Source of the DNA: an uncultured Chromatiales bacterium
GTDB lineage: Bacteria > Pseudomonadota > Gammaproteobacteria > SZUA-140
DNA: 64,000 bases
Assembly: GCA_964388175.1 (NCBI GenBank)
Contig: CAYLYS010000004.1
Location: 2,347-66,346 of the forward strand
Direction: 5' to 3'
Made by a program: the position numbers and the translations under genes
Shown: positions 16,362 to 47,931 of the stretch, in pieces
How positions within the stretch are numbered: the stretch's first letter is position 1
Layout: every line of letters starts with the position of its first letter
The notes under the pieces: model-generated
What the model saw: only the letters and a program-made list of their open reading frames with translations
Told to the model about the DNA's origin: nothing
The model's database searches: none

Positions 16362-16924
16362 TTCAGCGTGGGAGAGAATGCGACCTTACCATGACAAACG
16401 CCACAGAAGTCGCCCTGGATGATCGCCGACATGGAAACCGGATTGGCGCCGGCTTGCGGAATGAAGATCGCAGGATGGCAATTGGCGCATGTCAGCCACT
16501 CCGTATGCTGCAGATGGGGAAACCGCACCCACGGCATGGACTGCGTATTCCTGAAAATGATATCGAAATCGACCGGGAACATGTCCATGCTGCCGTCGAG
16601 CGAGGTGCGCGGCTCGATCAGCCTGCGCTCCAATGTCTTCACCCAGTCGATCTGCCCGGAACCATCGCGCGGGAAACCGGCCATGGCCTCATACGGCTGC
16701 TGCAGAACGGCAACCGCTTCGCCGCTGGGATCATGGATGCCGTCCTCCGCGACCGGAGCGATATCGCCGCGCATCTGGAAATGGGCGCCGCGCGACCACA
16801 ATGGCGCATCCTGCTCCTGTTGCGGGAATACGCTGCCCGCGGCACCCGCTGCCGCACTGACCGTCAAGGCCGCACATAGCGCCAGCAGACGCCACGCGCT
16901 CAGCGGATGCCCTCTTTTCATCAT
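16313..16924 (-). CDS. Triheme c-type cytochrome (c7/c3-like), periplasmic, copy A
   Basis: Signal peptide, then FPHLQHTEWLTCANCH, CGVCHGK and CGRCHS: three CxxCH motifs with distal His ligands in c7-like spacing. Paralogous to 18614..19264. Confidence 0.8.
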   Translation of the reverse strand: MMKRGHPLSAWRLLALCAALTVSAAAGAAGSVFPQQEQDAPLWSRGAHFQMRGDIAPVAEDGIHDPSGEAVAVLQQPYEAMAGFPRDGSGQIDWVKTLERRLIEPRTSLDGSMDMFPVDFDIIFRNTQSMPWVRFPHLQHTEWLTCANCHPAIFIPQAGANPVSMSAIIQGDFCGVCHGKVAFSPTLNCGRCHSVPQDVTLLR

Positions 16925-18507: not shown

Positions 18508-18560
18508 TCCTCCCTCATATACTCTGGCATACATTCGGGCACACACTCAGACAGACATCC

Positions 18561-18596
18561 GGCGGAGACAGAAGGCCCGCCCTGAACGGGCGGGCC
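18561..18596 (-). terminator. GC-rich hairpin (GGCCCGCCC-TGAAC-GGGCGGGCC) followed on the transcript by a U-rich tract (UUCUGUCUCC); candidate intrinsic terminator or attenuator
   Basis: Perfect 9-bp stem read at 18574-18596, 18 nt downstream of the triheme B stop codon and upstream of the cupredoxin gene RBS. Confidence 0.4.
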
Positions 18597-18613
18597 TGAC
18601 TACCAAAACAATT

Positions 18614-19264
18614 TTATCTCCAAGGATTCTTGACGGTCGCCTCGCTCAACGGTGGCTTCCAGTCCGCGGGCTTGGGCTTGGAATGACACTTCCCGCAGGT
18701 CGTCGTGGTCACCGGGAAGGACACCTTGCCATGGCACACGCCGCATTTCTCACCCAGCAGAATAGCAGACATGTTGATCTGATTGGATCCCGCCTGCGGC
18801 ACGAAGATCGCCGGATGGCAGTTCGAGCAGAACAGCCATTCCGTATGCTGCCGATGCGGGAACACCACATCCGGCATCGATGCCTTCACCGGTCTGACGA
18901 TATCGAGATCCATGACGAAGGGCTCTTCCGATGAATCGATGCGATCCCAGCGCGGGCGCAGCAGACCTTGATCCAGCGCCTGCACCCAGTCGATACGGTT
19001 GCCGAACACGGTACGCGGCAATCCCTGATAGGCTTCTTCCGGCGGCTGCAGCGAGAAGGTCGCCTCGTTGCTGGTGTCGTGGATACCGTCTTCCCACGGC
19101 GGCGGATTGGCGCTGTCACGCTTCTTCAGGTTGACGTTGAACTCATTGGCGGAAGAAACGCGCGATTCCTGCGCCGATACCGACTGTATCTGCCAAGGCA
19201 GCGCAAAAACCACCAGTGCAGCGGACAGACCGAGTGCGATCGAGACTTTCTTGATGATATTCAT
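18614..19264 (-). CDS. Triheme c-type cytochrome (c7/c3-like), copy B
   Basis: Signal peptide, then FPHRQHTEWLFCSNCH, CGVCHGK and CGKCHSK. Clear paralog of copy A (shared DGIHD, IDWVQAL and HTEWL blocks). Confidence 0.8.
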   Translation of the reverse strand: MNIIKKVSIALGLSAALVVFALPWQIQSVSAQESRVSSANEFNVNLKKRDSANPPPWEDGIHDTSNEATFSLQPPEEAYQGLPRTVFGNRIDWVQALDQGLLRPRWDRIDSSEEPFVMDLDIVRPVKASMPDVVFPHRQHTEWLFCSNCHPAIFVPQAGSNQINMSAILLGEKCGVCHGKVSFPVTTTTCGKCHSKPKPADWKPPLSEATVKNPWR

Positions 19265-19287
19265 GGCTCACTCTCTCCCGTCCGTCA

Positions 19288-19737
19288 TTATTGCTGCGAC
19301 TGTGCGCCGGCTGCGGGGTCCAGCGGCTTGAATGCCGGGGCCACGAGACGCTGCACGGTGCTGCCGTGGAAGTGAGTGGGAGTGCCGGGAATACCGGAAT
19401 GGCACATGGCACAGTTTTCGACCGACCAGGCCACCTCGCCGTTGTGGCAGGCGCCGCAGAACTGGCCGTCCACGATCTTGGCCATCGTGATCTGATTACC
19501 GCCCGCCTTGAACTGGAAGCCCAGGTCGGCGTGGCAAACCTTGCAGCGGAAACGCACGCGATGGAACCAGTGCGGGAACACCACTGGACGCATGGCCGCG
19601 GCATCGGAATAGTTATTGATGACGACGTCGCCGTATTCCGCCTGTGCTGGCTGCGGCGCCGCCCATATCCACAAACCGATCAGGAGCCCCGCAAACAGCG
19701 AGATGCGCGCAGGCATCCGAGAGATCATCGATGGCAT
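19288..19737 (-). CDS. Triheme c-type cytochrome, copy C (divergent, 149 aa)
   Basis: Signal peptide, then FPHWFHRVRFRCKVCH, CGACHNG and CAMCHSG. Same heme spacing logic but low identity to A and B. Confidence 0.8.
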   Translation of the reverse strand: MPSMISRMPARISLFAGLLIGLWIWAAPQPAQAEYGDVVINNYSDAAAMRPVVFPHWFHRVRFRCKVCHADLGFQFKAGGNQITMAKIVDGQFCGACHNGEVAWSVENCAMCHSGIPGTPTHFHGSTVQRLVAPAFKPLDPAAGAQSQQ

Positions 19738-19814
19738 AACAAACCCCTCCTACTTGCTTTCCAACCTTTATTTTTTATGCAGACACAGGCCTGGCCGGGC
19801 GAGCGAATCCGGGC

Positions 19815-21578
19815 TCAGAAACGACGGTTTATCTGAAAATAGATAATATTGTAATTGTCGTCATTCTGATCGCCGGAGAAACTGATGTAGCGCCAGCTCA
19901 GACTGGTATCCACCAGCCCGATCACGTAGTCCAGTCGGTTCTCCCACTCTGCGCGGTCTATCCCCTCGTCCGTGGCCGCGCGCGCAATACGCAAATCCGA
20001 GTTGAACCGAAGCTGGGCTATGTCGAACAAGCCCATGTGCCGGTAGGTCACCTGGCCGGTTGCGGTTACTGTATCATTATCCCGCAGCCCGTTGAAGTCC
20101 CGGCTCACCATTTGCACCGTCAGATTTCCGCTCAACATGCTGTACAGACTGAGCGTCTGATTGCGCATGAACTGCAGATTGGCGAATTGCTGATTGTCGT
20201 CCTGATCGCCGAATCCGCGGGAATCCGACAATGTCAGGTGGATCATCGTCGTCCCGCTCTCACCGTGCCGGTCCCATGACAGGCTGCCGGTGTGATCCAG
20301 GCGCTGGGTATTGATATCATCGGCCGTATCCGCCGTTTGATAAACCGTGCTAACCGACTGGCTCAGACTCAGGCGGAAAGTCCCCCGTCCATCCGTCATC
20401 CACATGCGCTGCGCATCGTGCCCGAGGCGGACCAGCCCGGTCAGCAAGTCCTCGCTGCCGGTATTCTGGTTCTGGGCCGATGCCTGAGCATGCCAGTTAT
20501 AGGTGAAATGGGTGAAAAGCGGGCGCAGATCGGATTGATAGAGCGCGCCGAGGCGCTGCCGGGAGGTCATATCCACACCGGCGGTATTGGTGTCCGTGAC
20601 ATCGACATTGGCGTCGAAACGCAGATTCTTCGTGTACTGATAAAAAGCGCCGGCGGTGGCGCTGACGCTGGCCTGATCGATCTCCCTGCCAGCGTTACTC
20701 GCCGCCATGTCGAAGAGGCGCACGCCCGCGCTCACCGACAGCGGTCTGTCGACCGGCCGCCAGAACAGAAAGCTCGACACCTGGGTATACGTTATATCCG
20801 CCCTGGCCAGATTGGTGCTGCCGGGCGCCTGTGCCGACCGGGTATCGGAATCGTAGTAGCTGACCATGGTATCGAAGCGCAGCGCCCGATCCGGATGGTA
20901 GAAGTGCTCGACGTTGAGCAGCTTGATATCGTTGTCCTGATCGATGGTCGCCAGCTCTATTTGCTGGTAGCTGGTCCTGGCGCTCAGGGTATGCTGCGGG
21001 CGGCGCATATTGTATTCCAGCCCGATCAGCTGATCCTTGTAGCTCTCGATACCGCGCGACTCCCAGGTGCCATGATCGAAGCGCAACTGAAAACGATCGC
21101 CGACTTCGGTCAGATAGCTCTGGCGCAGCGACAGCCGCCGCGTCTGAAAGTCATAACTGCTGAGCCCGGACACGGGATTGGGCAGCGTGACCGAATCGAC
21201 GCGGCTGTCGCTCATGCGGTAGGACAGCGAAAAAGGGGTACGGCTTTGCGGCAGGACGTTGAGATCGAGATCGAGACCGAGAATGGTCGTGCGCGATGAG
21301 GCGCCCGCATCATAGCTGCTGGCATCCTGGGTCGCGCGCAGCCCCGCGGACAGATTGGCGAACCACGGCTCCCACAGATAGGCCTGCGCGTTCAGCGCGG
21401 CACGCAACTGGTTGCTGTGCGCATCGCTGTTGTCGCTGCCCGTGATCGAACGGAAGGTATAGCCGACACTGCCGGAAACGTCGCTCACTCCGACCGCCGC
21501 CGCCGCAGCCTGCGCACTCCACAGCGCCGCGGCCACCGCGCACAGCATCGAACCGAGTTGACGCTTCCCCTCTGGCAT
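19815..21578 (-). CDS. Putative outer-membrane beta-barrel protein (587 aa, no heme-binding motif)
   Basis: Signal peptide (MLCAVAAALWSAQAAAAAV). Sequence rich in alternating hydrophobic/polar stretches and Y/W/F. C-terminal aromatic residue (...YFQINRRF). Only one Cys in the whole protein, so no CxxCH. Confidence 0.55.
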   Translation of the reverse strand: MPEGKRQLGSMLCAVAAALWSAQAAAAAVGVSDVSGSVGYTFRSITGSDNSDAHSNQLRAALNAQAYLWEPWFANLSAGLRATQDASSYDAGASSRTTILGLDLDLNVLPQSRTPFSLSYRMSDSRVDSVTLPNPVSGLSSYDFQTRRLSLRQSYLTEVGDRFQLRFDHGTWESRGIESYKDQLIGLEYNMRRPQHTLSARTSYQQIELATIDQDNDIKLLNVEHFYHPDRALRFDTMVSYYDSDTRSAQAPGSTNLARADITYTQVSSFLFWRPVDRPLSVSAGVRLFDMAASNAGREIDQASVSATAGAFYQYTKNLRFDANVDVTDTNTAGVDMTSRQRLGALYQSDLRPLFTHFTYNWHAQASAQNQNTGSEDLLTGLVRLGHDAQRMWMTDGRGTFRLSLSQSVSTVYQTADTADDINTQRLDHTGSLSWDRHGESGTTMIHLTLSDSRGFGDQDDNQQFANLQFMRNQTLSLYSMLSGNLTVQMVSRDFNGLRDNDTVTATGQVTYRHMGLFDIAQLRFNSDLRIARAATDEGIDRAEWENRLDYVIGLVDTSLSWRYISFSGDQNDDNYNIIYFQINRRF

Positions 21579-21626
21579 GAATTGCGTATCCCACGTCGGC
21601 CGCCCCGCGGCCTATTCAAGTTGTTA

Positions 21627-22622
21627 TTATTCCGATGGCAACGAATCGGCCGCGCCCACGCCGATCAATTCCTCGTTGACCGTGATCGCCGTCGTCTCAT
21701 GCAGGCGCGCCAGTGCATCCTGCCATGCGCGCTCGCTCAGCTCCCGGTGCAACAGATCACCGGCGCGCTCCGCCACCAGATCGAATGCGTTCAGCTGCGG
21801 AACGACGCGCTCGTCCAGCCGGAAAAGCGCATAGCCCTGCAGCATCTGCAGCGGCGCCGAGAACGTGCCGGGCTGCATGGCATCCAGCACCTCCTGCGCC
21901 TCGCGCGCCAGCATGCCCTTGTGGACATAGCCGAGATCACCGCCCTGCGCCGCCGATCCATCCGCCGAATGCAGCCGCGCCAGATCGGAAAATGACGCTC
22001 CGTCTTTCAGTTTCGCATACAGGCGCTGCGCCTCTTCCTGCGCCGCCTCCCATACAGCGCCACCGGACCAGGGTTCGACCCTGAGCAGTATCATCGACAC
22101 ACGCAGGCGTTCCGGCGTCGTGAATTTGTCCGGCTGCGCCCGGTAATACGCCAGCACGGCCTCCCGATCCGGCGCCGGCACCTGCTCGATCCGCTGCCGC
22201 AGCTGCGCGATGACGCTGTCCCCCATCAACTGCGCCCGCAGGGCTTCGCGCGCGGCAACCGGGTCGGCGCTGGCGGCGATGCGCTCGGTCAGCATGGTCA
22301 TCCGGGCATCCATCCACCGCTCATCCGGCGCGATGCCCTGGCGTTCCGCCTCCTGCAGCAACAGCAATCTGTCGACCATCGCCGCGGCGACTTCACGCCG
22401 GAAGGCAGCGATATCGGCGGCGGGCACCTGACCATGATAGAAGCGCTGTCGGACGCCGGCATGGAAATTCGCCTCGAATTCATCGATCGGGATCACCGTT
22501 CCGCCGACCACGGCAAAGACATCGGCACGATCCGGCGTTTCCTCCTGCTTGTCCTCCACACCGGCATGGCCCGCTGTCGTCAGCAGCAGAAACAAGGCCA
22601 TCGTGATCGAGAAAATCCGCAT
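21627..22622 (-). CDS. Periplasmic peptidyl-prolyl cis-trans isomerase (SurA/PpiD-like parvulin)
   Basis: Signal peptide MRIFSITMALFLLLTTAGHA, a SurA-like N-terminal chaperone region and a parvulin signature (SDGSAAQGGDLGYVHKGMLAREAQEVL ... FSAPLQMLQGYALFRL). The start could also be the Met at 22634. Confidence 0.7.
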   Translation of the reverse strand: MRIFSITMALFLLLTTAGHAGVEDKQEETPDRADVFAVVGGTVIPIDEFEANFHAGVRQRFYHGQVPAADIAAFRREVAAAMVDRLLLLQEAERQGIAPDERWMDARMTMLTERIAASADPVAAREALRAQLMGDSVIAQLRQRIEQVPAPDREAVLAYYRAQPDKFTTPERLRVSMILLRVEPWSGGAVWEAAQEEAQRLYAKLKDGASFSDLARLHSADGSAAQGGDLGYVHKGMLAREAQEVLDAMQPGTFSAPLQMLQGYALFRLDERVVPQLNAFDLVAERAGDLLHRELSERAWQDALARLHETTAITVNEELIGVGAADSLPSE

Positions 22623-22705
22623 CCGAGAATACATGCCAGTCCGGAGCCATGGGGCGGCGGCATTCTGCCCGCAGCATGCCCTGCCGCCCAGGTAGCGCTC
22701 GCCCG

Positions 22706-23545
22706 TCATTTATTGTGGCAAGTCAGACACACTGAACTGCCCACGGGGTCTACGCGCAAAAACAGAGGGTTGTAATCGACATGGGGATCATGGCAGGAAG
22801 CGCATTCCACATAGGGCTGCGGTTCGCCGACGAACACCCCGCGCGTTGCGACCCGGGTGTACAGCTTCATGTCGGACTTTTCGAAATCCGACGATCCCCC
22901 GACGGTACGGGTGTTGACCCACCAGAATCTTTCGCTGCCGACGATCTTGGTTTCCGCCTGATGGAAATCCGGATCGCGCCCCGGCCCGTGCGGATTGGCC
23001 TGGGAATAGCCGCCGCCGGCATACTGCACCGAAACCGGATGATCGTCGCGCAGATCCTTGCCGAGATTGGTGATGACCGTCACCGGGCCGATCCGCCCGC
23101 CCACCGGCGCGGCCTGGCCGCTCCAGACTCCCGCCCTGAAGGCCCAGTTCTCCGCGCCCGAGCCCGGCTCGTTGATCAGTGCGTCCATGGCCTGCGTCCC
23201 GTCGTGACAGGACAGGCAGGCGATCGATACCGAGCCGATCGGCTCGATGGCCGCATCGAGACTGGTGGAACCCAGCTGGTCATAGGTGGTGAATCCGGCA
23301 CTGCCGGGATCGATGTAGCGATTCCACAGAGGAACGGCGACCGAGGCATCGGCGCCGTGCGGCGTATGGCAGAAAACGCAGATCTCCGACGTGCCGCTGA
23401 AATTGCTCGCGGCATTGACGCCGGTACTGCCAAGATTATGCTTGGTATTGAAGATACCGGCGTTGACGGCGTGCGCCGACAGCAGTACGGCCCCGAGCAT
23501 GAGAACCAGCCAGGAACGTCTGCAAGTATGGTGACTTGCTCGCAT
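22706..23545 (-). CDS. Tetraheme c-type cytochrome, secreted
   Basis: Signal peptide and CVFCHTPHG, CLSCHDG, CASCHDPH, CLTCHNK. The N-terminal module NTKHN...CVFCHTPHG...PLWNR...CLSCHDG matches the N-terminus of the undecaheme. Confidence 0.8.
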   Translation of the reverse strand: MRASHHTCRRSWLVLMLGAVLLSAHAVNAGIFNTKHNLGSTGVNAASNFSGTSEICVFCHTPHGADASVAVPLWNRYIDPGSAGFTTYDQLGSTSLDAAIEPIGSVSIACLSCHDGTQAMDALINEPGSGAENWAFRAGVWSGQAAPVGGRIGPVTVITNLGKDLRDDHPVSVQYAGGGYSQANPHGPGRDPDFHQAETKIVGSERFWWVNTRTVGGSSDFEKSDMKLYTRVATRGVFVGEPQPYVECASCHDPHVDYNPLFLRVDPVGSSVCLTCHNK

Positions 23546-29102: not shown

Positions 29103-29756
29103 CTAGACCCGATAAGCGGTATGAGTCATCACCTTGGACACCAGCCGCATCAAGCCGCGCAGCGGCGCGGGCAGCGGCGCGGCGCCCGCCTCCAGCGCCA
29201 CCGTGCCGTGATGCATTTCATCTTCCTTCATCTGCTGCAAGATCGCGCGACTGCGGCCATCCGCGGCGGGCAGGCGGGACAGATGGCCGCCCAGGTGCTC
29301 GACCACCTGGCGCTCGGTTTCGACGATGAAGCCCAGACTCCACTTATCGCCAGTCCAGCCGGCCAGCGCGCCGATGGCGAAAGAACCGGCGTACCAGACG
29401 GGATTGAGGACGCTGGTGCGGCCACCGAGTTCATCGATGCGCTGCGCGCACCAGCGCAGGTGATCATTCTCCTCCAGCGCCGCCTGCTCCATCTTATCGC
29501 GCACACCGGGCAACCGGGCCGTCAACGCCTGCCCCTGATAAAGCGCCTGCGCGGAAACCTCGCCCGCGTGATTGACGCGCATCAGCCGCGCCACCTCGCG
29601 GCTCTCCTCCGCGCCCAGCTCGGCGTGCGGATGCGCGGCGGCGGGATAGTCGCGACCGGACACCGGCGGCCGGCCGAAGACGGTGCGCACGCCGCGGTCG
29701 AGGCCGACCAGAATGCGGTCGGCCAGACTGTAGCGGCGCAGCTCCGCATCGCTCAT
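29103..29756 (-). CDS. coq7: Demethoxyubiquinone hydroxylase Coq7 (di-iron)
   Basis: Di-iron carboxylate motifs (HAGEVSAQALYQGQ; ENDHLRWC; ETERQVVEHL). 217 aa. Confidence 0.8.
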   Translation of the reverse strand: MSDAELRRYSLADRILVGLDRGVRTVFGRPPVSGRDYPAAAHPHAELGAEESREVARLMRVNHAGEVSAQALYQGQALTARLPGVRDKMEQAALEENDHLRWCAQRIDELGGRTSVLNPVWYAGSFAIGALAGWTGDKWSLGFIVETERQVVEHLGGHLSRLPAADGRSRAILQQMKEDEMHHGTVALEAGAAPLPAPLRGLMRLVSKVMTHTAYRV

Positions 29757-31089: not shown

Positions 31090-31524
31090 TCAGGCGCTGT
31101 CATCGGCGGCAGGCACGATCTCGTAGTCGTGGGTGATCTCGACCCCCGCCCGGCCCAGCATGATCGAGGCCGAGCAGTACTTTTCCGCGGAGAGCGCGAT
31201 CGCACGCTGCACCGCGCTGTCGCTCACGCCATTGCCGCGCACGATGAAATGAATATGGATGCGGATGAATACGCGCGGCGGCTCCGGCGCCCGCTCGGCC
31301 TCTATTTCCGCCACGCAGTCTTCCACCGGCTGGCGCGATTTCTTCAGAATCTGCACCACATCGTAAGCGGTGCAGCCGCCGGCACCGATCAGCATCAGCT
31401 CCATCGGCCGCACGCCCATGTTCCGTCCGCCGCCGTCGGCAGGGCCGTCGATCACCACGGGATGTCCGCTATCGGACTCGCCGATGAACTGCACCCCTTC
31501 GATCCACTTCACACGCGCCTTCAT
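31090..31524 (-). CDS. OsmC/Ohr-family peroxiredoxin-like protein
   Basis: 144 aa with two conserved Cys (GAGGCTAYD; KYCSAS). Confidence 0.75.
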
Positions 31525-31615
31525 TAAACTTCTTCCCCGCTATACCGATAACCATTGCGAATCAACGCCTGCGGCGGCCTGCGCCGCCTCATCCGGGCGT
31601 ACGCGAGGAATTATC

Positions 31616-32254
31616 ATGACGCAATTACGGCGAAAAATCATCACTCCCACCGTCGAAAGATTCCTGGCGCACTGCCACCGCCGACGCTATCCCACCAAGA
31701 GCGTCATCATCTACCGAGGTGATGCGCCGACCTCTCTTTACTACATCGTAGAGGGTTCGGTGGCGGTGCTGCACGAGGACGACGACGGTCGGGAAATCGT
31801 TCTGGCCTACCTCAACGCCGGTGACTTCTTCGGCGAGATGGGCCTGTTCGATCGCAACAACTCCGGGCGCAGCGCCTGGGTGCGCTCGCGCACGCAATGC
31901 GAGCTGGCGGAAATCAATTATGACAAGTTCCGTCAGATGGCCGCGCAGTACCCCGACATCCTGTTCGAACTCGCCACGCAGATGGCGCTGCGGCTGCGCC
32001 GCACCAGCAGCATGGTGGGACGTCTGGCTTTCATGGACGTCGCCGGGCGCGTCGCACGCACGCTGCTCGAACTGTGCCAGCAACCGGATGCCATGACTCA
32101 TCCCGACGGCATGCAGATCCGCATCACCCGCCAGGAGCTCGGCCGCATCGTCGGCTGCTCGCGCGAAATGGTCGGCCGCGTGCTGAAGAATCTCGAAGCC
32201 CAGAACCTGATTTCCGTCAAAGGAAAAACCATCGTCGTCTTCGGCACGCGCTAG
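31616..32254 (+). CDS. crp: cAMP-receptor-protein family transcription regulator (Crp/Vfr)
   Basis: cNMP-binding ([21 protein letters not shown]...[10 protein letters not shown]) and an HTH ([31 protein letters not shown]) almost identical to the Crp/Vfr recognition helix. Confidence 0.85.
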
Positions 32255-38989: not shown

Positions 38990-39167
38990 AGAAAACACCT
39001 CGATCAAAACACGGGAATGACCGACCAGGAGACAAATTTACCCGATCGGGCCTGAATTTTCACCGCCTGAATTCATTGCCTGATTCATTGGGGGGACACA
39101 GAAACGAGGAGGCGCCCTCCCCCGCACACGGGGAAAAGGCGCCTCGCTTTCGGATTCAGCAGGACGA

Positions 39168-40211
39168 TCAGGCGGATGCGCGCACCAGCCCGTACTTGAC
39201 TAGGGTCCGGCGCACCGCATAGGCGGCGATGCCGAACACCACTAGGGTGACGACGATATCGAACATCGAGGTCATCGGCACATGGTAGTAGGCCGGGTCG
39301 ACCGTACCGGAGATCCAGGTGTAACGCTCCAGCCACGTGCCGATGAGGATGAAGAAGGCCACCGTGGTGATGGTCACCGGATTGTGCCGGTTCTTGGTGA
39401 ACACCAGCGTCAACAGCGGTATGACGAACTTGAACGCCAGGAATGTCCACCAGATCGGGCCGAGGCCTTCACGCATCATATGGTCGTAACGCGCCATTTC
39501 CTCCGGCAGGCGTCCGTACCACATGATCAGGTACTGCGTGAAGTACAGATACGTCCACAGGATGGTCATGGCGAGCATGAACTGCGCCATGTAATTGAAG
39601 ATCTTGGTCTCGAACGGCTGCGTCAGACGGCCCGAGCGATAGATGAAGAACAGGAAAATGGTGAAGAACGCCAGGAACATATGGAAATTGCTCTGGAAAT
39701 GATATGCCCCGTAGCTGGCGCTGTGCCAGTTCGGCCACATGGTCATTTCGAAGTCCCAGGCCACCATCGAACCGTAAAAGAAGTACATGAACGGAATCAG
39801 CAGGGCGATATTGCGGAAACGCCGCTGCGCGCGATAGCTGGAATCGACCTCGCTCAGATACTGATAGCGGATGAACAGACCGCACAGGGCGACGACGAAG
39901 AGGAAGCCGACGATCTGGCGCGTCACCAGGAAGGTGTAGTTGTGCCAGCCCGGCAGGTGATGCTCGGGGTCATGGTCGTTCAGCTGACCGTACCACTGGA
40001 ACGTGCTGTCGCCGTTGGCGAGCAGAATGATCAGCAGAATGCCGGCGATCGGGAACAGCGCGGCAAAGGAACATGCCAGCTTGCGCACCTGGAAACGCCA
40101 CTGACCATTGCACAGATGCAGCACCGCCGACAACACGATCCCACCCAGGGCGATATAGAGCAGCATCAGGAAATTCGTCGTCAATACAGACCAGCTGCCA
40201 AAATTCTCCAT
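39168..40211 (-). CDS. actF: Alternative Complex III subunit ActF (polytopic membrane protein)
   Basis: 347 aa multi-TM protein in last position of the act operon. Confidence 0.65.
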   Translation of the reverse strand: MENFGSWSVLTTNFLMLLYIALGGIVLSAVLHLCNGQWRFQVRKLACSFAALFPIAGILLIILLANGDSTFQWYGQLNDHDPEHHLPGWHNYTFLVTRQIVGFLFVVALCGLFIRYQYLSEVDSSYRAQRRFRNIALLIPFMYFFYGSMVAWDFEMTMWPNWHSASYGAYHFQSNFHMFLAFFTIFLFFIYRSGRLTQPFETKIFNYMAQFMLAMTILWTYLYFTQYLIMWYGRLPEEMARYDHMMREGLGPIWWTFLAFKFVIPLLTLVFTKNRHNPVTITTVAFFILIGTWLERYTWISGTVDPAYYHVPMTSMFDIVVTLVVFGIAAYAVRRTLVKYGLVRASA

Positions 40212-40247
40212 CGCTCTTCTAGCCTCTCGTAAACGGTTATCGACTGG

Positions 40248-40817
40248 TCACTGCGCCCTGGCGGCGGTTCTGACCGCGGACTCGGCATCCTGTACCAGTC
40301 CGTTACGCATATAGTTGACGATATGCCAGCGCTCATCGCTGGCCAGGTCGTTGCTGCCGCGCTGGTCGGCACGATTCTGCGGCGCCCCGTAGGCCGGCAT
40401 CAGGAAACTGCCGAAGGTAATGGTGCCGTACAGCCAGCCTTCGGTCAGCGTCTTCTGGATACGATCGTCGAGCAGCGGCGGCGCGCCGATCTTGCCGGAG
40501 ACGGGAGAATCCCCCGCGCCGGTGAGACCGTGACAGGCGGCGCAGTAGATCTTGAACAGCGTACGGCCCTGATCGATCGAAGCGGCACTGGCCGGAATCG
40601 GGTTGCTCAGCGTATCGGCCTCTTCACGGCTCGCGACGACGGTCGGCAGACCGTCGAGGGGCACGGACCGCTTCGGAAACGGATACATCTCCAGCCGGTC
40701 CGCCGACACCGGTGCCTGCGGTTCGATGGCGGGCTGATCGACCATATCGGTCGACCAGGGCCAGGCCCACGCCATAGCCGGGAAGAAAACCGCCAGTACT
40801 GCGAACCTGTACTTCAT
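40248..40817 (-). CDS. actE: Alternative Complex III monoheme cytochrome c subunit ActE
   Basis: Signal peptide and a single CAACH motif. Position after actD. Confidence 0.7.
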   Translation of the reverse strand: MKYRFAVLAVFFPAMAWAWPWSTDMVDQPAIEPQAPVSADRLEMYPFPKRSVPLDGLPTVVASREEADTLSNPIPASAASIDQGRTLFKIYCAACHGLTGAGDSPVSGKIGAPPLLDDRIQKTLTEGWLYGTITFGSFLMPAYGAPQNRADQRGSNDLASDERWHIVNYMRNGLVQDAESAVRTAARAQ

Positions 40818-41341
40818 GACTTGCCCTCTTCCCGGATTTCGAGCGCCTGATGCTCGTTGAACAGGCGCTTGATCGGTTCGATGTATTTCTCTTCCAGCTC
40901 GAGCTCGATGCCGACCTGATCGACGGTGACCTTCTCACTGTAGGGTTGCTTGCGTGGACGCAGCAGACGCGCCGTGATCAGCAGTCCTGCCAGCGTGAAC
41001 AGCACGCTGAACATGATCATGATCTCGTAAGTCAGCACGAAGTTCGACGGCAGCGCGACCACCGGCTTGCCGCCCTGCGGCTGCACCAGGAAGCTTGCCT
41101 GCGACGAAGCCAGGAACAGGAAGCCGAAAACCGTGCCGAAGATGGCGCCGCACAGGGTGAACTTGCGGATGTGGCTGGGACGGTCGCCCAGCAGTTCCAC
41201 CAGTTCCGGATGTTCGATCGGCGAGATCACCGTGACGTCGTCGACCGATACCCCCGGCACCTTGAAGCTGCGGATCTCCGAGATCACCGTCATGGCCTCG
41301 GAAAAATTGCTGTACAGGGCCAATATGCGCTTTTTCTTCAT
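40814..41341 (-). CDS. actD: Alternative Complex III subunit ActD
   Basis: 175 aa with a single TM segment. ATGA overlaps on both sides. Position between actC and actE. Confidence 0.6.
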   Translation of the reverse strand: MKKKRILALYSNFSEAMTVISEIRSFKVPGVSVDDVTVISPIEHPELVELLGDRPSHIRKFTLCGAIFGTVFGFLFLASSQASFLVQPQGGKPVVALPSNFVLTYEIMIMFSVLFTLAGLLITARLLRPRKQPYSEKVTVDQVGIELELEEKYIEPIKRLFNEHQALEIREEGKS

Positions 41342-41344
41342 GAC

Positions 41345-42796
41345 TCAGGCTCCCTCATATCCCGGTGGTGCATCCGGACGTCTGGCGGCAGTGCTGGCCG
41401 AGCGGCTATGCATGACCGATGCGAGATCCTTCTGCGCCAGATGTCGGCGATGCGCGATCATTTCCTTCACTTCGTACATGGAGACCGAGGGAATGACCTT
41501 GACGAAAACCAGGAACAGCAGACCGAACCAGCCGAAGCTGCCGAGCACGATCGCGAGCGAAGTCCAGGTCGGCCAGAACACATCGAAGGCAAACGGATGA
41601 TAGCCCTGGGCCAGGGTCGGCGACACGATCATCCAGCGCTCGAGCCACATGCCGTAGTTGAGCAGGATCGACACGATGAACATGATCGGAATGCTGCGGC
41701 GGAAGCGCTCGACCGCCAGCATGAACGGCAGCACCGAACCGCAGAACAGCATCTGCCAGAACCAGACCGCGTACGGGCCGGTGAACTTGTCGATCAGCAG
41801 TTCCTTGTCGACCGCGTTATGGCCGTACCACACCGAGGCGAACTCGATGTAGGTCAGGTAGCTCCACACCATGGCGATGGCGAAGGTGAGCTTGCACGTC
41901 TTCTCGAGAATCGGAATCGTCATGTACGCTTCGAAGCGGAAGTAGTAGCGCAGCAGCACGAACAGCGTGATGATGCCGGCGCAGCCCGAATAGAGGGCGC
42001 CCGCGACGAAGTAGGGCGGGAAGCTGGTGATGTGCCAGCCGGGCATGATCGACATGGCGAAGTCGGAGGCCACGATCGAGTGCACCGACACCGCCAGCGG
42101 AATCAGGAAGCACGCCATCACCAGATAGGCGACGCGGAAATTGCGCCACTGGCGGTCGTCGCCGCGCCAGCCGAGGGCGAGCACGGAATAGAGCTTCCTG
42201 CGCCAGCCGCGCGCCGTGTCGCGCACGATGGCGAGATCGGGAATCGAGCCCATGAACAGGAACAGCGAGGACGCCGTCAGATAGGTGGTGATGGCGAAGG
42301 CATCCCACAGCAGCGGCGAACGGAAATTGGGCCAGATGCCGCGATCGCTGAAATACGGCAGCACCCAGTACATGTTCCACAACCGACCGAGATGGATGAC
42401 GGGAAAGAGCATCGCCGTCATCAGGGTGAACGTGGTCATCGCCTCGGCGAAACGGTAGATCGGCTTGCGCCAGTCCGCATGGATGATATGCAGGATGGCG
42501 GACAGCAGCGTTCCGGAATGGCTCATGCCGATCCAGAAGATGAAGGTTGCGATGTAGAGGTTCCACATGTGCGGCCAGTTCTTGGCCACACCCATACCGG
42601 TCCGGTACTGGTGGATCTCGGCCGCCAGTCCTATGCCGAGCAGCCCGAGGCAGATGACGACGGAAACCCAGTACCCCATGCGCGGGTTTTCCATCGAACG
42701 AAGAACGTCTTCGTTGATTTTAGCCCAGCGGATATCTTCGTTGATATCCTTCTCCTGCTCCGGGGTCATAACGGCAGTGGTATTGGTATTGGTCAT
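41345..42796 (-). CDS. actC: Alternative Complex III quinol-interacting membrane subunit ActC (NrfD/PsrC family)
   Basis: 483 aa NrfD-like polytopic protein. Confidence 0.8.
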   Translation of the reverse strand: MTNTNTTAVMTPEQEKDINEDIRWAKINEDVLRSMENPRMGYWVSVVICLGLLGIGLAAEIHQYRTGMGVAKNWPHMWNLYIATFIFWIGMSHSGTLLSAILHIIHADWRKPIYRFAEAMTTFTLMTAMLFPVIHLGRLWNMYWVLPYFSDRGIWPNFRSPLLWDAFAITTYLTASSLFLFMGSIPDLAIVRDTARGWRRKLYSVLALGWRGDDRQWRNFRVAYLVMACFLIPLAVSVHSIVASDFAMSIMPGWHITSFPPYFVAGALYSGCAGIITLFVLLRYYFRFEAYMTIPILEKTCKLTFAIAMVWSYLTYIEFASVWYGHNAVDKELLIDKFTGPYAVWFWQMLFCGSVLPFMLAVERFRRSIPIMFIVSILLNYGMWLERWMIVSPTLAQGYHPFAFDVFWPTWTSLAIVLGSFGWFGLLFLVFVKVIPSVSMYEVKEMIAHRRHLAQKDLASVMHSRSASTAARRPDAPPGYEGA

Positions 42797-42838
42797 GGCA
42801 AGCTCGATTTTCCGCTGCTTGTATATGTTTTATCGGGT

Positions 42839-43711
42839 TCAGACTTCGCGAACCCGCTCCAGGAACAGCACGCAGGGATCGGTATTCAGGCCTTCGAATA
42901 CGCGGTAGCCGCGCAGCTCCGGATTCTGCTTGCGCTGGCGCGTCTTGCCGAGCTCGACCTGATGCGTCTTCCACAGCCGCGCCGCCTCGGTGTCACCGAC
43001 ACCGCCGCCCGGCGTATGGAGCGTGAGCAGATCGCCGAACACCACGGCGCCGGTCGCGCAGGTCTGCGCGCAGGCAACGTTGACCTCACCGTCGCGCACC
43101 TTGCGGTTTTCCATCGCCGCGCGATCCTTGACCACGCGGATGCGCTGCACGCAGAAGGTGCACTTTTCCATCACACCCTTGTCACGCACGCTGAGGTCCG
43201 GATTGAGCTGCATATGCAGCGGCGCCGGCCAGGAGCTCTCGTAGTAGGAGAAGAAATTGAAATAACGCAGGCGATAGGGGCAGTTGTTGGAGCAGTAGCG
43301 CGAGCCGATACAGCGGTTGTAGACCTGGGCATTGAGGCCGTCGGGCGTATGATAGGTCGCCGCCACCGGACACACCGGCTCGCAGGTCGCCGCATTGCAT
43401 TGCTGGCAGCACATCGGCAGGAAGCTGGCGCCGTAGTGCGGGTAATCGGCGACCTTCTCATCGCCGAGATCCGGCTCGTCCCAGTAGCGCTCGATGCGCA
43501 GCCAGCTCATGGCGTGGCCCTTGGAGGAACGCTCCTTGCCGACGACGGCCAGATTGTTCTCGGCGTAGCAGGAGGTCACGCAGGCGCCGCAGCCGGTGCA
43601 CTTGTTGAGATCGATGACCATGCCCCACATGTGCTCATACTTGTGGTGGCCACCCTGCTCGTGCCCCTTGCGGTAGTCGGACCAGTTCTCGATGATGTTC
43701 TGTAAGGACAT
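42839..43711 (-). CDS. actB2: Alternative Complex III iron-sulfur subunit ActB2
   Basis: Multiple 4Fe-4S cysteine clusters (CTGCGACVTSC; CCQQCNAATCEPVCP; CIGSRYCSNNCP; CTFCVQR...CAQTCATGA). Confidence 0.75.
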   Translation of the reverse strand: MSLQNIIENWSDYRKGHEQGGHHKYEHMWGMVIDLNKCTGCGACVTSCYAENNLAVVGKERSSKGHAMSWLRIERYWDEPDLGDEKVADYPHYGASFLPMCCQQCNAATCEPVCPVAATYHTPDGLNAQVYNRCIGSRYCSNNCPYRLRYFNFFSYYESSWPAPLHMQLNPDLSVRDKGVMEKCTFCVQRIRVVKDRAAMENRKVRDGEVNVACAQTCATGAVVFGDLLTLHTPGGGVGDTEAARLWKTHQVELGKTRQRKQNPELRGYRVFEGLNTDPCVLFLERVREV

Positions 43712-45948
43712 TACGCTCTCCTTCCTTCGGTGCGCTCGAACCGGTCGGCGGTGACGGTGACGACCAGCTTGCGCCCGACCTGTGTTTCGCTGCCGCCAAT
43801 GATGACCAGCTGATCCTCACCGGCACGCTTCTTGGTGTCGCGCACGAAGGCGGCGGAAACGCGGGTGGCGTGATGGGCGAGCTCGCCGGTCTTGGCGTCG
43901 CGCACATCGGCGAGAATGCTGAAGGGATTGACCCCGCGGTCCTTGGCGTAGCGTCCGTAGGCCTTGTGCCCCTGACCCACCGGCACGGCGATCGCATCGG
44001 GATGCATGCCCTTGTAGACGTAGACGCGCACGTCGATACTGCCCTGCTCGGAGCTGATCTTGAGCAGATCGCCGGTCTGCACACCGAGGCGGGAGGCCGT
44101 AACGGGGTGCATCTCGGCCCAGGAATCCCACACCACCTTGCTGATGGCGTCGGGCAGCTCCTGCAGCCAGGGGATATTGGCGTGGCGGCCGTCCCACAGA
44201 CTGGCATTGGCCGAAGGCAGCAGGAAGTACGAACCCGAAGCGATCGTCGGCTCGGCGACCTGGAACGATACCGGACGCGCCGGCAGCGCGGTCGACGGCG
44301 CGTCGCCGAGATCCAGCACGCCCTTCTGGCGCACCGCCGCCCAGAACGCGGAATCGCTCTGCGCCGCGCCGCGGAAACGCGCCGGCAGCGCGACGAAGGC
44401 ATGCGCCAGATAAGCGTAGTAGTCTTCGTAACCGGCGTAGTCCGCATCGCCGCGCAGCTTGAGCAGGCTCAGCACGAGATCGCCGAAACCGCGGGTTTCC
44501 GGGTAAAGCGGCTCCATCACCGGCTGTTGCACGGCGATGAACATACGCTCGGGCTGGGTGGCGGTCACGTGCGTGCCCCAGTCCTCGAGCGGCGAGTAGA
44601 GCGGCAGGATGAGATCGGCCTGCAGCGAGGTCTCGTCCTCGAAATGCGAGAAGGCGACCTTGAACGGCACCGCCGCCAGACGCTCCTGCACGCGCAACGC
44701 TTCGGGCGCGGTGAAAATCGGATTGGCGCCCTTGATGAAAACCACATCGAAACGCTTTTCTTCCAACCCCTGCACGAAATCCGTCAGAGCGCGGTTGCTG
44801 CCGGTACGCGCCCGCAGCTGCGGGAACGGCAGGCCCTCGCCGGAAACGATGGTACGGCCGACGTTGCCGAGGATGAGATTCAGCGTCATCGCGGCGGCAA
44901 CGCTGTCATAGCCGCGCTCGTGGCCCTCGGCCGAGGCACCGGCGAGCACCAGGCTCGGCGCGCGCTCGTGGAGCAGCTCGGCGATGCGCTTGATGTGCTC
45001 TTCGGAAGTGCCGGTGATCGCCGCGGCCTTGGCGGCATCGTAACTGCGGATCTGCGCCTGCACGTCGGCGGGCAGGAAGGAAATATCACGGCCATGGCTG
45101 CCGGCAAGCACATTGGCGATGGCGAGCGCGAGCACGCCTTCGGCGCCCGGGCGCACCGGCACCCACAGATCGGCATTGGCGCCGGTCATGGTCATCTTCG
45201 GCTCGGCGACCAGCAGCACGCCGCGCGGCGAACTGCGGAAATCGCCGTAGCGGCGGGAATTCGATACCGATCCGCCCCAGGTGCCGAGGAAATCGGCGCC
45301 AAAGGACAGCACGACGCTGGCCTTGTCGATCGCCAGGCGCGGATTTTCCTCGCCCAGCATGTCGCGGCATACCGCGCGCCACACCGACAGATTGATCGCT
45401 TCGTAGACGTAGTGATTCTCGGAGCCGATCGCCTCCATCAAGGCATCGACCAGCACCGCCTGGTGGCCGCTGACGGTATCGGTCAGCCAGGCGAAACGGC
45501 TGCCGTCGAGACCGGAGTCGGGGCCGACCTTCTCGCGCAGCAGGGTAAGCGCCTCGTCCCAGCTAATGTCGGCATAACCGTTACCGCGGCGCACGCGGGG
45601 GCGCGTGATGCGGTCGGGATTGTAGTGCGACTGCAGGCCCGCCTGCCCCATGGCGCACAGGCCACCCTTGTTCAGGGGAGAATCCGGGTTTCCTTCCAGC
45701 TTGATTACACGGCCTTCGCGGACACGCGCCTGCACACCGCAGGCCGAAGGGCACTGCTGGCAGGTGGTGGCATACGACACGCCGATACCGGGGATGACGT
45801 ATTCCTCCGGAGCGACATAGGAAACCACATGGTTGCGGCCTTCCCGCTGGGTTATGTAGCTGGGCCGGTCACAGGCGGCGACCGCGACGCCGGCGCCGGT
45901 CCATCCCATCACCTTGATGAATTCTCTGCGTTTCATTTTGAGACTCAT
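43711..45948 (-). CDS. actB1: Alternative Complex III molybdopterin-oxidoreductase-like subunit ActB1 (Tat signal)
   Basis: Twin-arginine motif KRREFIKVMGWTGAGVAVAA, an N-terminal Cys cluster (CQQCPSACG...C) and the length and architecture of a cofactor-less MopB-like domain. Confidence 0.75.
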   Translation of the reverse strand: MSLKMKRREFIKVMGWTGAGVAVAACDRPSYITQREGRNHVVSYVAPEEYVIPGIGVSYATTCQQCPSACGVQARVREGRVIKLEGNPDSPLNKGGLCAMGQAGLQSHYNPDRITRPRVRRGNGYADISWDEALTLLREKVGPDSGLDGSRFAWLTDTVSGHQAVLVDALMEAIGSENHYVYEAINLSVWRAVCRDMLGEENPRLAIDKASVVLSFGADFLGTWGGSVSNSRRYGDFRSSPRGVLLVAEPKMTMTGANADLWVPVRPGAEGVLALAIANVLAGSHGRDISFLPADVQAQIRSYDAAKAAAITGTSEEHIKRIAELLHERAPSLVLAGASAEGHERGYDSVAAAMTLNLILGNVGRTIVSGEGLPFPQLRARTGSNRALTDFVQGLEEKRFDVVFIKGANPIFTAPEALRVQERLAAVPFKVAFSHFEDETSLQADLILPLYSPLEDWGTHVTATQPERMFIAVQQPVMEPLYPETRGFGDLVLSLLKLRGDADYAGYEDYYAYLAHAFVALPARFRGAAQSDSAFWAAVRQKGVLDLGDAPSTALPARPVSFQVAEPTIASGSYFLLPSANASLWDGRHANIPWLQELPDAISKVVWDSWAEMHPVTASRLGVQTGDLLKISSEQGSIDVRVYVYKGMHPDAIAVPVGQGHKAYGRYAKDRGVNPFSILADVRDAKTGELAHHATRVSAAFVRDTKKRAGEDQLVIIGGSETQVGRKLVVTVTADRFERTEGRRA

Positions 45949-46000
45949 ATGGAAACCATCCCATTCCGGCTGCGCGTCATCGGTCCACTGCTGCGCGGCA

Positions 46001-46663
46001 TCATTTATGACACTTCCAGCAGTCGAACGGACCTTCGTTGGCCTGGTGGCAACGCTGGCAGAAACCCATCGTCAAAGGCTTGACCTTCTCCGCCACGGTC
46101 ATGTTCTTCACATCGCCGTGACAGAAGGCGCAGACTTCCTGTACACGCTCGACCGGGAGATCCTCATTGTCGAAAACGAAGCGCTTGAGGTGCTTCTCGT
46201 GGGTGAAGTGCACGTAGTCCGGCAGATCGTGAACCTTGTTCCACGGCGGCGGCTCGCGCTTTTCCCAATACTCGGTGAGCTGCTGAATGCGCGGCTTGTC
46301 GGTGGCGATGACCAGATGGCAACCCATGCATTTGCTCAGCGGCGGTATGCCCGCGACCTTGCTGCGACGCGCATAGCTGTGGCAATACATGCAGTTGATG
46401 CCATTGTCCTTGACATGGACATCGTGCGGGAATTCGATCGGCTGCTCGACGTGCTTGCCCGAATAGCTGCCCTTGGGAGGAACCGCATTGGGCACGCCGT
46501 TCTGGGCCTGGGCAGGCATGGCATAAAGCGCGAATGCCGCAATCATCATCAGCGCGAACAGCAGGGGGAACAAACGGGTACTGATGCCGCCTGCCGCCTC
46601 TGCGCGTGGACAGGACGAATGCCCTGAGAATAGTAGTCCCGTGACTGACATCTCTCCCCTCAA
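46001..46663 (-). CDS. actA: Alternative Complex III pentaheme cytochrome c subunit ActA (start uncertain)
   Basis: Five CxxCH motifs (CMYCH, CMGCH, CAFCH, CQRCH, CWKCH) after an N-terminal membrane anchor. First gene of the act operon. Confidence 0.8.
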   Translation of the reverse strand: MRGEMSVTGLLFSGHSSCPRAEAAGGISTRLFPLLFALMMIAAFALYAMPAQAQNGVPNAVPPKGSYSGKHVEQPIEFPHDVHVKDNGINCMYCHSYARRSKVAGIPPLSKCMGCHLVIATDKPRIQQLTEYWEKREPPPWNKVHDLPDYVHFTHEKHLKRFVFDNEDLPVERVQEVCAFCHGDVKNMTVAEKVKPLTMGFCQRCHQANEGPFDCWKCHK

Positions 46664-47143
46664 CTTCTGCTATTAAATCTGTATGAGACCAGGCAACGCC
46701 GGCCATGCCCAAAGACCGTACCTGCGGAATAAATTTCTACATACCGAGCGATCACCAGCGCCCCTGCCATCACGAGGGTGACCTTGAGCAACTCAATGTA
46801 TTTAGCAGTGTGAAATCGCCGGAAGAAACCCCGCGAGCGATGCCTCCTCGTGCCGCCGATTGGATGCCCCTTCTGCTGCAACGCCGATCTCACCGGATCG
46901 TTACGCGCTGCTCATCCATGCTCTAACGGCCTGTTTTTAACAACTTATCAAGTGAAGGGGAATCCTAGATCAATATGCTCGGATATGTCAACGCTGATAT
47001 CCCGCGCCTGCGCGCATGACTTCATCATCAACTGCACGATATTAACTGCACGATTCGTACAGGCTTATGCATGCATCGCAGAAGCACAGGGAGCATCGTT
47101 CCCGTATCACCAGAGGCGCATCAATAACATTGTGCGCGCCGAT

Positions 47144-47169
47144 GCGCATACCTCAAATGAGGTATGCGC
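47144..47169. promoter_or_regulatory. Perfect palindrome GCGCATACCTC-AAAT-GAGGTATGCGC in the 500-bp act/nif3 intergenic region
   Basis: 11-bp arms read directly. Located 4 nt beyond the nif3 stop (minus strand) and inside the long AT-richer region upstream of actA. Either a terminator stem for nif3 or a dimeric-regulator operator. Confidence 0.4.
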
Positions 47170-47172
47170 GGC

Positions 47173-47931
47173 TCATACCGGGTTATCTATATCGATGAAA
47201 CGGAAATCGACCGCGCAGTGCGTGCGCAGATGCGCACCCACGGCCTGCACGCCGTAACGCTCCGTCGCATGATGACCGGCGGCGAAATAATGAATGCCGG
47301 CTTCACGCGCGACATGCGTGGTGCGCTCGGAGATTTCGCCGCTGATATAGGCATCGACTCCCGCCGCGGCGGCCACGTCGATGTAATCCTGCGCCGCGCC
47401 GGTGCACCAGGCCACCGTGCGCAGAACATCGGGGCCGCCGGCAATGTGCAGCGGCACTCGTCCGAGCCGCGCCGCGATATGCTGCGCGAACAGCGCCGGC
47501 GCGCACGGCGCGGACAAGCGCCCATGCAGCACCAGGTCGGTGCGTGCACCGGCGGCGAGCACGCCGTCGGACTGTATATCCAGTACCCGCGCCAACTGCG
47601 CATTGTTGCCGAGCTCGGCATGCGCATCGAGCGGGAGATGATAGGCGAAGAGCGATATGCCGTGCTGGAGCAGCAGGCGCAGACGGCGCTGCTTGATGCC
47701 GCGCACACGCGCGTCCTCACCCTTCCAGAACCAGCCGTGATGGACCAGCAGCGCATCGGCGCCGGCGTCGACCGCGGCCTCGATCAGCGCCAGGCTCGCC
47801 GTCACGCCACCGACGATGCGCCTTATCTCGGGACGGCCCTCGACCTGCAGACCATTGGGCGCGTAGTCGGTGAAACGAGCCGGTTCCAGCAGCGTTTCGA
47901 GACAGGCTTCAAGTTCATTCAAGGTAACCAT
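47173..47931 (-). CDS. Nif3-family dinuclear-metal-centre protein (YqfO/YbgI-like)
   Basis: 252 aa with the conserved His-rich motifs of the Nif3 family (LLVHHG; AYHLPLDAH; AAGHHATE). Confidence 0.8.
   Translation of the reverse strand: MVTLNELEACLETLLEPARFTDYAPNGLQVEGRPEIRRIVGGVTASLALIEAAVDAGADALLVHHGWFWKGEDARVRGIKQRRLRLLLQHGISLFAYHLPLDAHAELGNNAQLARVLDIQSDGVLAAGARTDLVLHGRLSAPCAPALFAQHIAARLGRVPLHIAGGPDVLRTVAWCTGAAQDYIDVAAAAGVDAYISGEISERTTHVAREAGIHYFAAGHHATERYGVQAVGAHLRTHCAVDFRFIDIDNPV

Follow-up and report, generated by a model that had tools for sequence, protein, structure and literature searches.

Which role does an operon for Alternative Complex III (ACIII) play when it lies close to a cluster of multiheme cytochromes of the electron-uptake (uet) type, and in which direction would electrons pass through the complex? 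The question is raised by a 64-kb stretch of DNA from an uncultured gammaproteobacterium (hereafter the window), in which the act genes all lie on the minus strand, between positions 39168 and 46651. The analysis makes it likely that these genes form a self-contained unit encoding an ACIII-like enzyme of the iron-oxidizer type, which would exchange electrons between c-type cytochromes and quinone in a proton-coupled manner. The operon type, known from iron oxidizers and from bacteria that feed on electrodes, the uet cluster and the idea of a route from uet through ACIII to quinone are all already described; the result is a sound annotation, not a discovery.

Composition of the act operon

The listing of open reading frames (ORFs) contains seven minus-strand ORFs arranged head to tail in the intact order actA-B1-B2-C-D-E-F (Table 1). 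By direct reading of the sequence, actB1 and actB2 meet in TAATG, with a one-base overlap at 43711, and actD and actE overlap in ATGA, just as a first-pass annotation of this DNA had stated. The CXXCH motifs, five in actA and one in actE, correspond to the heme numbers expected for ACIII. In the Pfam search, ActB1 showed three MopB domains above threshold, ActB2 4Fe-4S dicluster domains, ActC an NrfD domain and ActE a cytochrome c domain. ActD matched the ACIII-specific family PF11821 (Pfam ActD; E=6.4e-28), and a phmmer search against PDB returned no match for it. No Pfam match was found for ActF.

For the six subunits other than ActD, the top structural-database match was a chain of a solved ACIII. 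The best PDB match of ActA was 6f0k_A (1.6e-26), and the protein has a single hydrophobic segment (residues 27-45). ActB1 matched ACIII ActB chains best (8k9e_B, 4.5e-45), with ArrA as the third-best match (9.7e-42), and ActB2 aligned with residues 793-991 of 6f0k_B (E=7e-71). ActC matched 6f0k_C (E=1.3e-105), and the best match of ActE was 6f0k_E (4e-9). The best match of ActF was the Rhodothermus marinus ActF chain 6f0k_F (E=2e-23; query residues 15-330 on chain residues 71-390), and ActF is 22% identical to ActC. The ORF order, heme counts, domains and structural matches thus bear out the first-pass annotation in its account of a complete seven-gene ACIII operon, of an ActB split into two ORFs, and of a pentaheme ActA, a MopB-like ActB1, an NrfD-type ActC and a monoheme ActE.

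The start of actA is placed at the ATG at 46651, because GAGGGGAGAG-ATG-TCAGT is conserved upstream of actA in relatives. Both this ATG and the Shine-Dalgarno sequence that precedes it, GAGGGGAGAG, are conserved in an alignment of spacers from ten species, and the combined motif is also among the most shared k-mers of the related spacers. The TTG at 46663, taken as the start by the ORF lister, lies inside the Shine-Dalgarno sequence; the spacer between nif3 and actA is therefore 46652-47172 (521 bp). The non-coding region first given as 46664-47172 is real, and only its boundary with actA had to be corrected.

Table 1. Positions of the act genes, predicted expression signals, uet-like cluster and other features in the window.
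Feature	Position	Strand	Description
actA	46001-46651	-	pentaheme cytochrome c, one N-terminal membrane helix
actB1	43711-45948	-	MopB-like subunit, 745 amino acids
actB2	42839-43711	-	four-cluster Fe-S subunit, 290 amino acids
actC	41345-42796	-	NrfD-like quinone-binding membrane subunit, 483 amino acids
actD	40814-41341	-	ACIII-specific small membrane subunit, 175 amino acids
actE	40248-40817	-	monoheme cytochrome c, 189 amino acids
actF	39168-40211	-	second NrfD-like membrane subunit, 347 amino acids
predicted act promoter	46962-46991	-	sigma-70-type; TTGACA, 18-nt spacer, TAGGAT; consensus scan 10/12
predicted 5' untranslated leader	46652-46955	-	about 300 nt, ends in Shine-Dalgarno GAGGGGAGAG
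terminator-like hairpin	39109-39145	-	15 pairs, 10 of them G-C, then T-containing tail CTCGTTTCTG
tandem direct repeat	47027-47054		14 nt, ATCAACTGCACGAT / ATTAACTGCACGAT
perfect palindrome	47144-47169	.	GCGCATACCTCA-AA-TGAGGTATGCGC, core TACCnCA-N2-TGnGGTA
uet-like cluster	9610-23545	-	electron-uptake cluster, as a whole
tetraheme cytochrome	22706-23545	-	
PpiC-type isomerase	21627-22709	-	
587-amino-acid protein	19815-21578	-	no Pfam match, at the UetC position
three triheme c7 cytochromes	19288-19737, 18614-19264, 16313-16924	-	
541-amino-acid protein	16921-18546	-	no clear family, where Tenderia has cupredoxin UetF
two NHL-repeat proteins	14248-16361	-	
undecaheme cytochrome	11495-14251	-	11 hemes
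ResB-like and CcsA-like genes	within 9610-23545	-	ccsAB-like
coq7	29103-29756	-	COQ7-type ubiquinone biosynthesis gene
regulator gene	31370-32254	+	Crp/FNR family

Functional residues and departures from the solved complexes

The window complex resembles the solved ACIIIs (6f0k from Rhodothermus marinus; 6lod and 8k9e; 6btm from Flavobacterium johnsoniae) in its heme numbers, ActB2 cysteines, ActC quinol site, ActD glutamate and ActF tyrosine. The alignment to 6f0k_C shows that ActC keeps His139, Asp169, Ser245 and Asp253 of its Rhodothermus counterpart; His139, Asp169 and Asp253 form the proposed quinol pocket, and Ser245 is the coupling residue (PMC5928083). The equivalent of Tyr284 in ActF is also Tyr in the alignment to 6f0k_F, and the second hydrophobic segment of ActD (TYEIMIMF) includes a Glu. 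ActB2 has the cysteine pattern of the C-terminal domain of Rhodothermus ActB, including the three-cysteine ([3Fe-4S]) motif CIGxRYCxxxCP, which agrees with the four Fe-S clusters assigned to it in the first-pass annotation.

The departures concern ActB1 and ActF. ActB is fused in the solved complexes, whereas it is split in the window and in all of the 80 related loci (L001-L080). ActB1 contains the FS0 [4Fe-4S] motif CX2CX3CX27C (C63, C66, C70 and C98). Its cysteines are invariant in 23 ActB1 homologues, and the motif was found in 77 of the 80 loci; in contrast, the alignments show no cysteines at these positions in the B1 domains of 6f0k_B, 6lod_B and 8k9e_B. The solved complexes have four clusters in total, to which the window adds the FS0 motif. 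Neither ActG nor ActH is present in the window operon.

At the position of the molybdenum ligand, the ligand Cys of ArrA is aligned to the nearly invariant Asn186 of ActB1, in a YEAIN motif that resembles YEPIN of the solved ActB chain 8k9e_B. Because of this replacement a catalytic molybdenum site is unlikely in ActB1, and ActB has been reported to be devoid of Mo/W-bis(pyranopterin guanine dinucleotide) (PMC10100899). The N-terminus of ActB1 harbors a twin-arginine translocation (Tat) signal, KRREFIK, followed by a lipobox ending in Cys-Asp (residues 7-27); this Cys-Asp is invariant among the aligned homologues and present in 79 of the 80 loci. In lipoprotein sorting, a Cys-Asp lipobox leads to inner-membrane retention, which suggests that ActB1 is a Tat-exported lipoprotein held at the inner membrane.

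The window ActF aligns to the four solved ActF chains only from chain residue 51-106 onward, and the gap between actE and actF is only 36 nt; therefore, the N-terminal segment is absent. ActF is about 55 residues shorter at this end than the solved chains, all four of which have some 50-100 N-terminal residues that it lacks. Rhodothermus ActC and ActF have ten helices each (PMC5928083), and the window ActF is probably missing the first one. A helix count by hydropathy was discarded, since it gave only 6 helices for ActC against 10 in the solved structures.

An actAB1B2CDEF cluster with CX2CX3CX27C in B1 was described in freshwater and marine iron oxidizers by Kato et al. 2015 (PMC4643136). This ACIII-like cluster of Ferriphaselus, Sideroxydans, Gallionella and Mariprofundus has the same seven genes in the same order as the window, with ActB split and no oxidase genes attached; the window differs in that its host belongs to another lineage. 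The comparison sets the clade apart from the solved ACIIIs by a split ActB, the FS0 motif, the Cys-Asp lipobox and a short ActF.

Predicted promoter, leader and terminator

The nif3-actA spacer has a GC content of 0.52-0.54 against 0.60-0.69 in the flanks, so the region is AT-richer than its surroundings, as first noted, and every relative has a spacer here of no less than about 450 bp. The consensus scan produced a sole strong sigma-70-type match on the act strand. A footprint of ten spacers revealed one sharply conserved block, CGTTGACA-N-TTGATCTAGGATTC, which coincides with this promoter. Of 44 related nif3-actA spacers, 43 contain the pattern TTGACA-N16-19-TAnnAT, with a chance expectation that we estimate at about 0.002 per spacer per strand, and CGTTGACA was the most shared 8-mer (33 of 45 spacers). 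The conserved promoter substantiates the earlier proposal of a distinct control region upstream of act. From its position, we infer a transcription start near 46955.

The predicted leader has a length that recurs in relatives (about 300-360 nt), and its interior is weakly conserved and indel-rich in the ten-spacer alignment. A riboswitch or structured leader was rejected, as Rfam gave nothing at E<=1 except a chance small nucleolar RNA match, the folding z-score was +0.45, and the interior is poorly conserved. A conserved small ORF in the leader was also rejected; by inspection of the alignment, it occurs in two relatives only and is absent from the window. The conserved promoter and leader length may guide transcript mapping.

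The first-pass annotation had seen no FNR/ANR box by eye and had proposed a motif scan for ANR/FNR, ArcA, RegA/PrrA and Fur boxes. In the scan of 46652-47172, which covered FNR/ANR, CRP, Fur, ArcA, RegA/PrrA, IscR, NtcA and FixK boxes, none was better than shuffled sequence, and the best matches were equalled by 75-254 of 300 shuffles. As the promoter is near-consensus and deeply conserved, strong and largely constitutive expression of act is suggested.

At the other end of the operon, the terminator-like hairpin between actF and rpe gave 5 nested matches against 0.3 expected. The act genes are accordingly predicted to be an independent transcription unit, from the promoter at 46991-46962 to the terminator at 39145-39109.

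Some further elements were observed around the promoter. The two copies of the 14-nt tandem repeat have their centres about 78 and 92 bp ahead of the inferred start. The repeat was rejected as a conserved element because relatives do not keep it in repeated form; some of them have one GTGCAGTTAT-like element of weak similarity. A TTGAT half-site lies about 20-35 bp upstream of TTGACA in L009-L015, L021, L026, L033, L035, L036, L040 and L043, and in many of these distant relatives an A/T-rich AAAATTTTCG tract abuts the act -35. The window act promoter has neither the TTGAT half-site nor the AAAATTTTCG tract.

Relatives and chromosomal position

The ActB1 family is large: of the candidates scored, 2,370 proteins passed E<=1e-20, and 524 loci were confirmed among species-representative genomes. 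The nearest ActB1 was 74% identical among the species-representative genomes searched, which do not include the window's own genome, and 81% identical in the protein database. The hosts of the nearest sequences are metagenome-assembled genomes (MAGs) of Chromatiales and other Gammaproteobacteria. The act gene order was the same in 80 of 80 related loci, for all genes that the contig allows. In one of them, L024, a second actC-like gene (9111-10490) lies just downstream of actF.

Directly upstream of act, nif3 was found in 44 of the 80 loci, and rpe-gph, usually followed by trpE, lay downstream in 34. This nif3 / act / rpe-gph synteny persists down to about 52% ActB1 identity. The slot formed by nif3, the act operon and rpe-gph-trpE (window 39168-47931) is kept across dozens of divergent gammaproteobacterial MAGs, which makes it a stable address that may aid in finding and binning the operon in metagenomes. 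It also places act directly upstream of two Calvin-cycle-associated genes, rpe and gph, with the terminator hairpin in between. Neither this slot nor the act promoter and leader were found in the literature consulted.

The act genes have a GC content at third codon positions (GC3) of 0.75-0.86, equal to or above that of their neighbours. Where total GC drops, over actC and actF, the cause is the composition of membrane proteins at the first and second codon positions. A recent horizontal transfer, as the lower GC might suggest, was rejected on the basis of the neighbour-like GC3 and the old synteny.

The uet-like cluster and its relation to act

Heme counts and the domain search identified a complete uet-like cluster for extracellular electron uptake on the minus strand (Table 1). 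It matches the uetA-J plus ccsAB cluster published for Tenderiales (10.1101/2022.05.06.490989), and no cupredoxin UetF was recognised in it. As listed, the two NHL-repeat ORFs share about 118 nt; the true start of the downstream one (14248-15426) therefore probably lies internal to its listed GTG.

The interval between uet and act contains two porin genes, tRNA-Gln, rpsI, rplM, a GlcF-like gene, coq7, a speD-like gene, a glyoxalase gene, a Crp-family regulator gene, a TraF-like gene, trpCDGE, gph and rpe. Many metagenomic contigs show the rpsI-rplM-coq7-crp-trp-gph-rpe backbone again, and a uetA-like gene adjoins rpsI/rplM in at least two of the contigs (L088 and L159). The 13-kb proximity of uet and act thus appears to reflect a conserved housekeeping backbone, not an operon link. 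The functional link that the first-pass annotation drew from this proximity is not established, given the housekeeping genes in between and an act operon with its own predicted promoter and terminator.

Two genes of the interval deserve mention. The Crp/FNR-family regulator gene belongs to the backbone of relatives, and the scan of 46652-47172 found no box matching such a regulator upstream of actA. The COQ7-type gene lies on the same backbone; its presence nearby suggests ubiquinone rather than menaquinone as the ACIII substrate.

The entry of undecaheme-derived electrons into the quinone pool via ACIII or bc1, with reverse electron transport, has already been proposed (PMC5371394; 10.1101/2022.05.06.490989). 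Like Ca. Tenderia and the Tenderiales of that model, the window pairs a uet-like cluster with ACIII; therefore, the published electron-uptake model applies directly, and a route from uet through ACIII to quinone is plausible here, as was published for Ca. Tenderia. The ActB1 of a Ca. Tenderia MAG (L076) is only about 53% identical to that of the window, and membership of the window's host in Tenderiales is not established. The window adds one more uncultured gammaproteobacterium that pairs uet, an outer-membrane system of electron uptake, with an iron-oxidizer-type ACIII, which fits the published model without testing it.

Proposed function and direction of electron flow

The sequence shows a periplasmic electron-transfer module made up of the pentaheme ActA, the monoheme ActE and the four Fe-S clusters of ActB2. 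It also shows a fifth cluster motif, FS0, in an ActB1 that has a Tat export signal, is probably lipid-anchored and is devoid of the molybdenum-ligand cysteine. ActC, ActD and ActF compose the membrane module, which keeps the residues of the quinol site and of coupling known from Rhodothermus ACIII. In the proposed mechanism, the complex would exchange electrons between c-type cytochromes of the periplasm and the pool of quinone (probably ubiquinone), and proton movement would be coupled to this exchange. In the uphill mode, the complex would pass electrons from cytochrome c to quinone, paid for by the proton-motive force, and would feed reverse electron flow to NAD+.

We consider the chances about even that the complex runs uphill at least part of the time in this likely lithoautotroph. 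Reverse operation is plausible because of the uet cluster and the rpe-gph context, the expression data from Tenderia, and the precedent of Qrc. In Ca. Tenderia, the expression of ACIII clusters with that of NADH:ubiquinone oxidoreductase and of undecaheme and triheme cytochromes (PMC5371394), and ACIII and uet are both conserved in Tenderiales (10.1101/2022.05.06.490989). Qrc, a related complex, acts as a quinone reductase (PMC6303296). Several points weigh against this picture of the operon and its enzyme. All purified ACIIIs are quinol oxidases, and none has been biochemically shown to work in reverse (PMC5928083); no genes for bc1, an oxidase or NADH dehydrogenase occur in the window; and the transcription start, leader and terminator are predictions.

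The strongest alternative, which we rate as possible but clearly less probable than the proposed unit, is a canonical forward ACIII. Such a complex would pass electrons from quinol to a periplasmic cytochrome c or high-potential iron-sulfur protein and on to a cbb3- or aa3-type oxidase, for heterotrophic growth or on stored carbon, and would be unrelated to electron uptake. This is how every biochemically characterised ACIII operates (PMC5928083); His139, Asp169 and Asp253 of the quinol site are kept in the window ActC, and the promoter looks constitutive. However, no oxidase genes follow the operon, as they frequently do in canonical act clusters (PMC5928083), and relatives usually carry bc1 too (10.1101/2022.05.06.490989). 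In Tenderia, moreover, bc1 groups with the canonical cbb3 oxidase, whereas ACIII groups with NADH:ubiquinone oxidoreductase (PMC5371394).

A quinone reductase of the Qrc type, which would form an energy-conserving redox loop together with periplasmic donors of low potential, is very unlikely. QrcABCD, the menaquinone reductase of sulfate reducers, shares with the window complex a MopB-like subunit that is unfused and, in the window by prediction, cofactor-less, together with a four-cluster subunit, a membrane-anchored multiheme cytochrome and an NrfD-like quinone subunit, an architecture that can reduce quinone (PMC6303296). The B and C subunits of the window are unfused like QrcB and QrcC, the top NCBIfam matches are QrcA, QrcB and QrcC, and the ActB1 of iron oxidizers falls into a joint ACIII-Qrc clade (PMC4643136). 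However, the bit scores for QrcA, QrcB and QrcC (74 against 180, 311 against 440 and 199 against 400, respectively) are far under the curated NCBIfam cut-offs. Qrc has four subunits, whereas the ACIII-specific additions ActD, ActE and ActF are present in the window, and ActA has five hemes against the six of QrcA (PMC6303296).

Least probable of all, and likewise very unlikely, is a catalytic molybdo- or tungsto-enzyme (Arr-, Psr- or Phs-like) in ActB1 as part of a periplasmic substrate:quinone oxidoreductase. In its favour, the invariant FS0 motif is retained, the MopB domains score above threshold, ArrA matches at 9.7e-42, a sister relationship of ActB to ArrAB has been reported (PMC10100899), and ArrAB/PsrABC likewise have a MopB fold, FS0, separate alpha and beta genes and Tat export. 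Against it, the Mo/W ligand of such enzymes is Cys (or Sec, Ser or Asp), and in ActB1 the ligand Cys is replaced by Asn186; the window complex has extra cytochrome and membrane subunits; and the best equivalog scores (171 against 694 for PhsA, 166 against 1600 for ArrA) lie, as for all molybdoenzyme models, far below cut-off.

Returning to the iron-oxidizer-type ACIII, we also considered a stronger version of the uphill mode, in which FS0 would extend the Fe-S wire by a fifth centre to a second periplasmic entry or exit point and so make a mechanistically distinct enzyme, which would accept electrons from donors in the periplasm and drive them uphill into ubiquinone. This version is doubtful, and we regard it as unlikely. 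If true, the FS0 clade, with more than 2,000 homologues, would supply the link for reverse electron transport that is missing in neutrophilic iron oxidizers and in electroautotrophs, and would not be a bc1 substitute.

The palindrome downstream of nif3

The perfect palindrome that the first-pass annotation reported with 11-bp arms at 47144-47169 was confirmed; arms of 12 nt (47144-47155 and 47158-47169) with 2 nt between them are as valid as arms of 11 nt with a 4-nt loop. It starts 3 nt past the nif3 stop codon, some 200 bp upstream of the act promoter, and is a single copy in the window, with 0 expected by chance. As a shared operator of act and the cytochrome cluster it was rejected, since the window contains no second copy, even with 1 mismatch.

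In relatives, the core is found 3' of nif3 in the 8 closest loci only, at 17-46 nt from the nif3 stop codon and 99-177 bp from the act -35, and more distant relatives have unrelated sequence there. The assignment of the palindrome to the act control region is thus not established, as it tracks the nif3 stop and its distance to the -35 is variable. At position 5 the two half-sites change independently of each other and do not pair in 8 of 10 sequences, and covariation was not significant in the pair-count test, where 79 of 500 shuffles scored as high as the real sequences. These two results speak for a motif at the DNA level rather than an RNA stem; they neither prove nor exclude a hairpin. No T-run follows the palindrome.

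The sequence TACCTCA-AA-TGAGGTA was compared with the NarL/NarP 7-2-7 consensus, which consists of inverted TACYYMT heptamers 2 bp apart. It has one mismatch per heptamer, a match equalled by 11 of 300 shuffles, and no cognate regulator for such a site was seen in the window. The palindrome may be either a 3' hairpin or end element of nif3, or a distal protein-binding operator of the 7-2-7 type.

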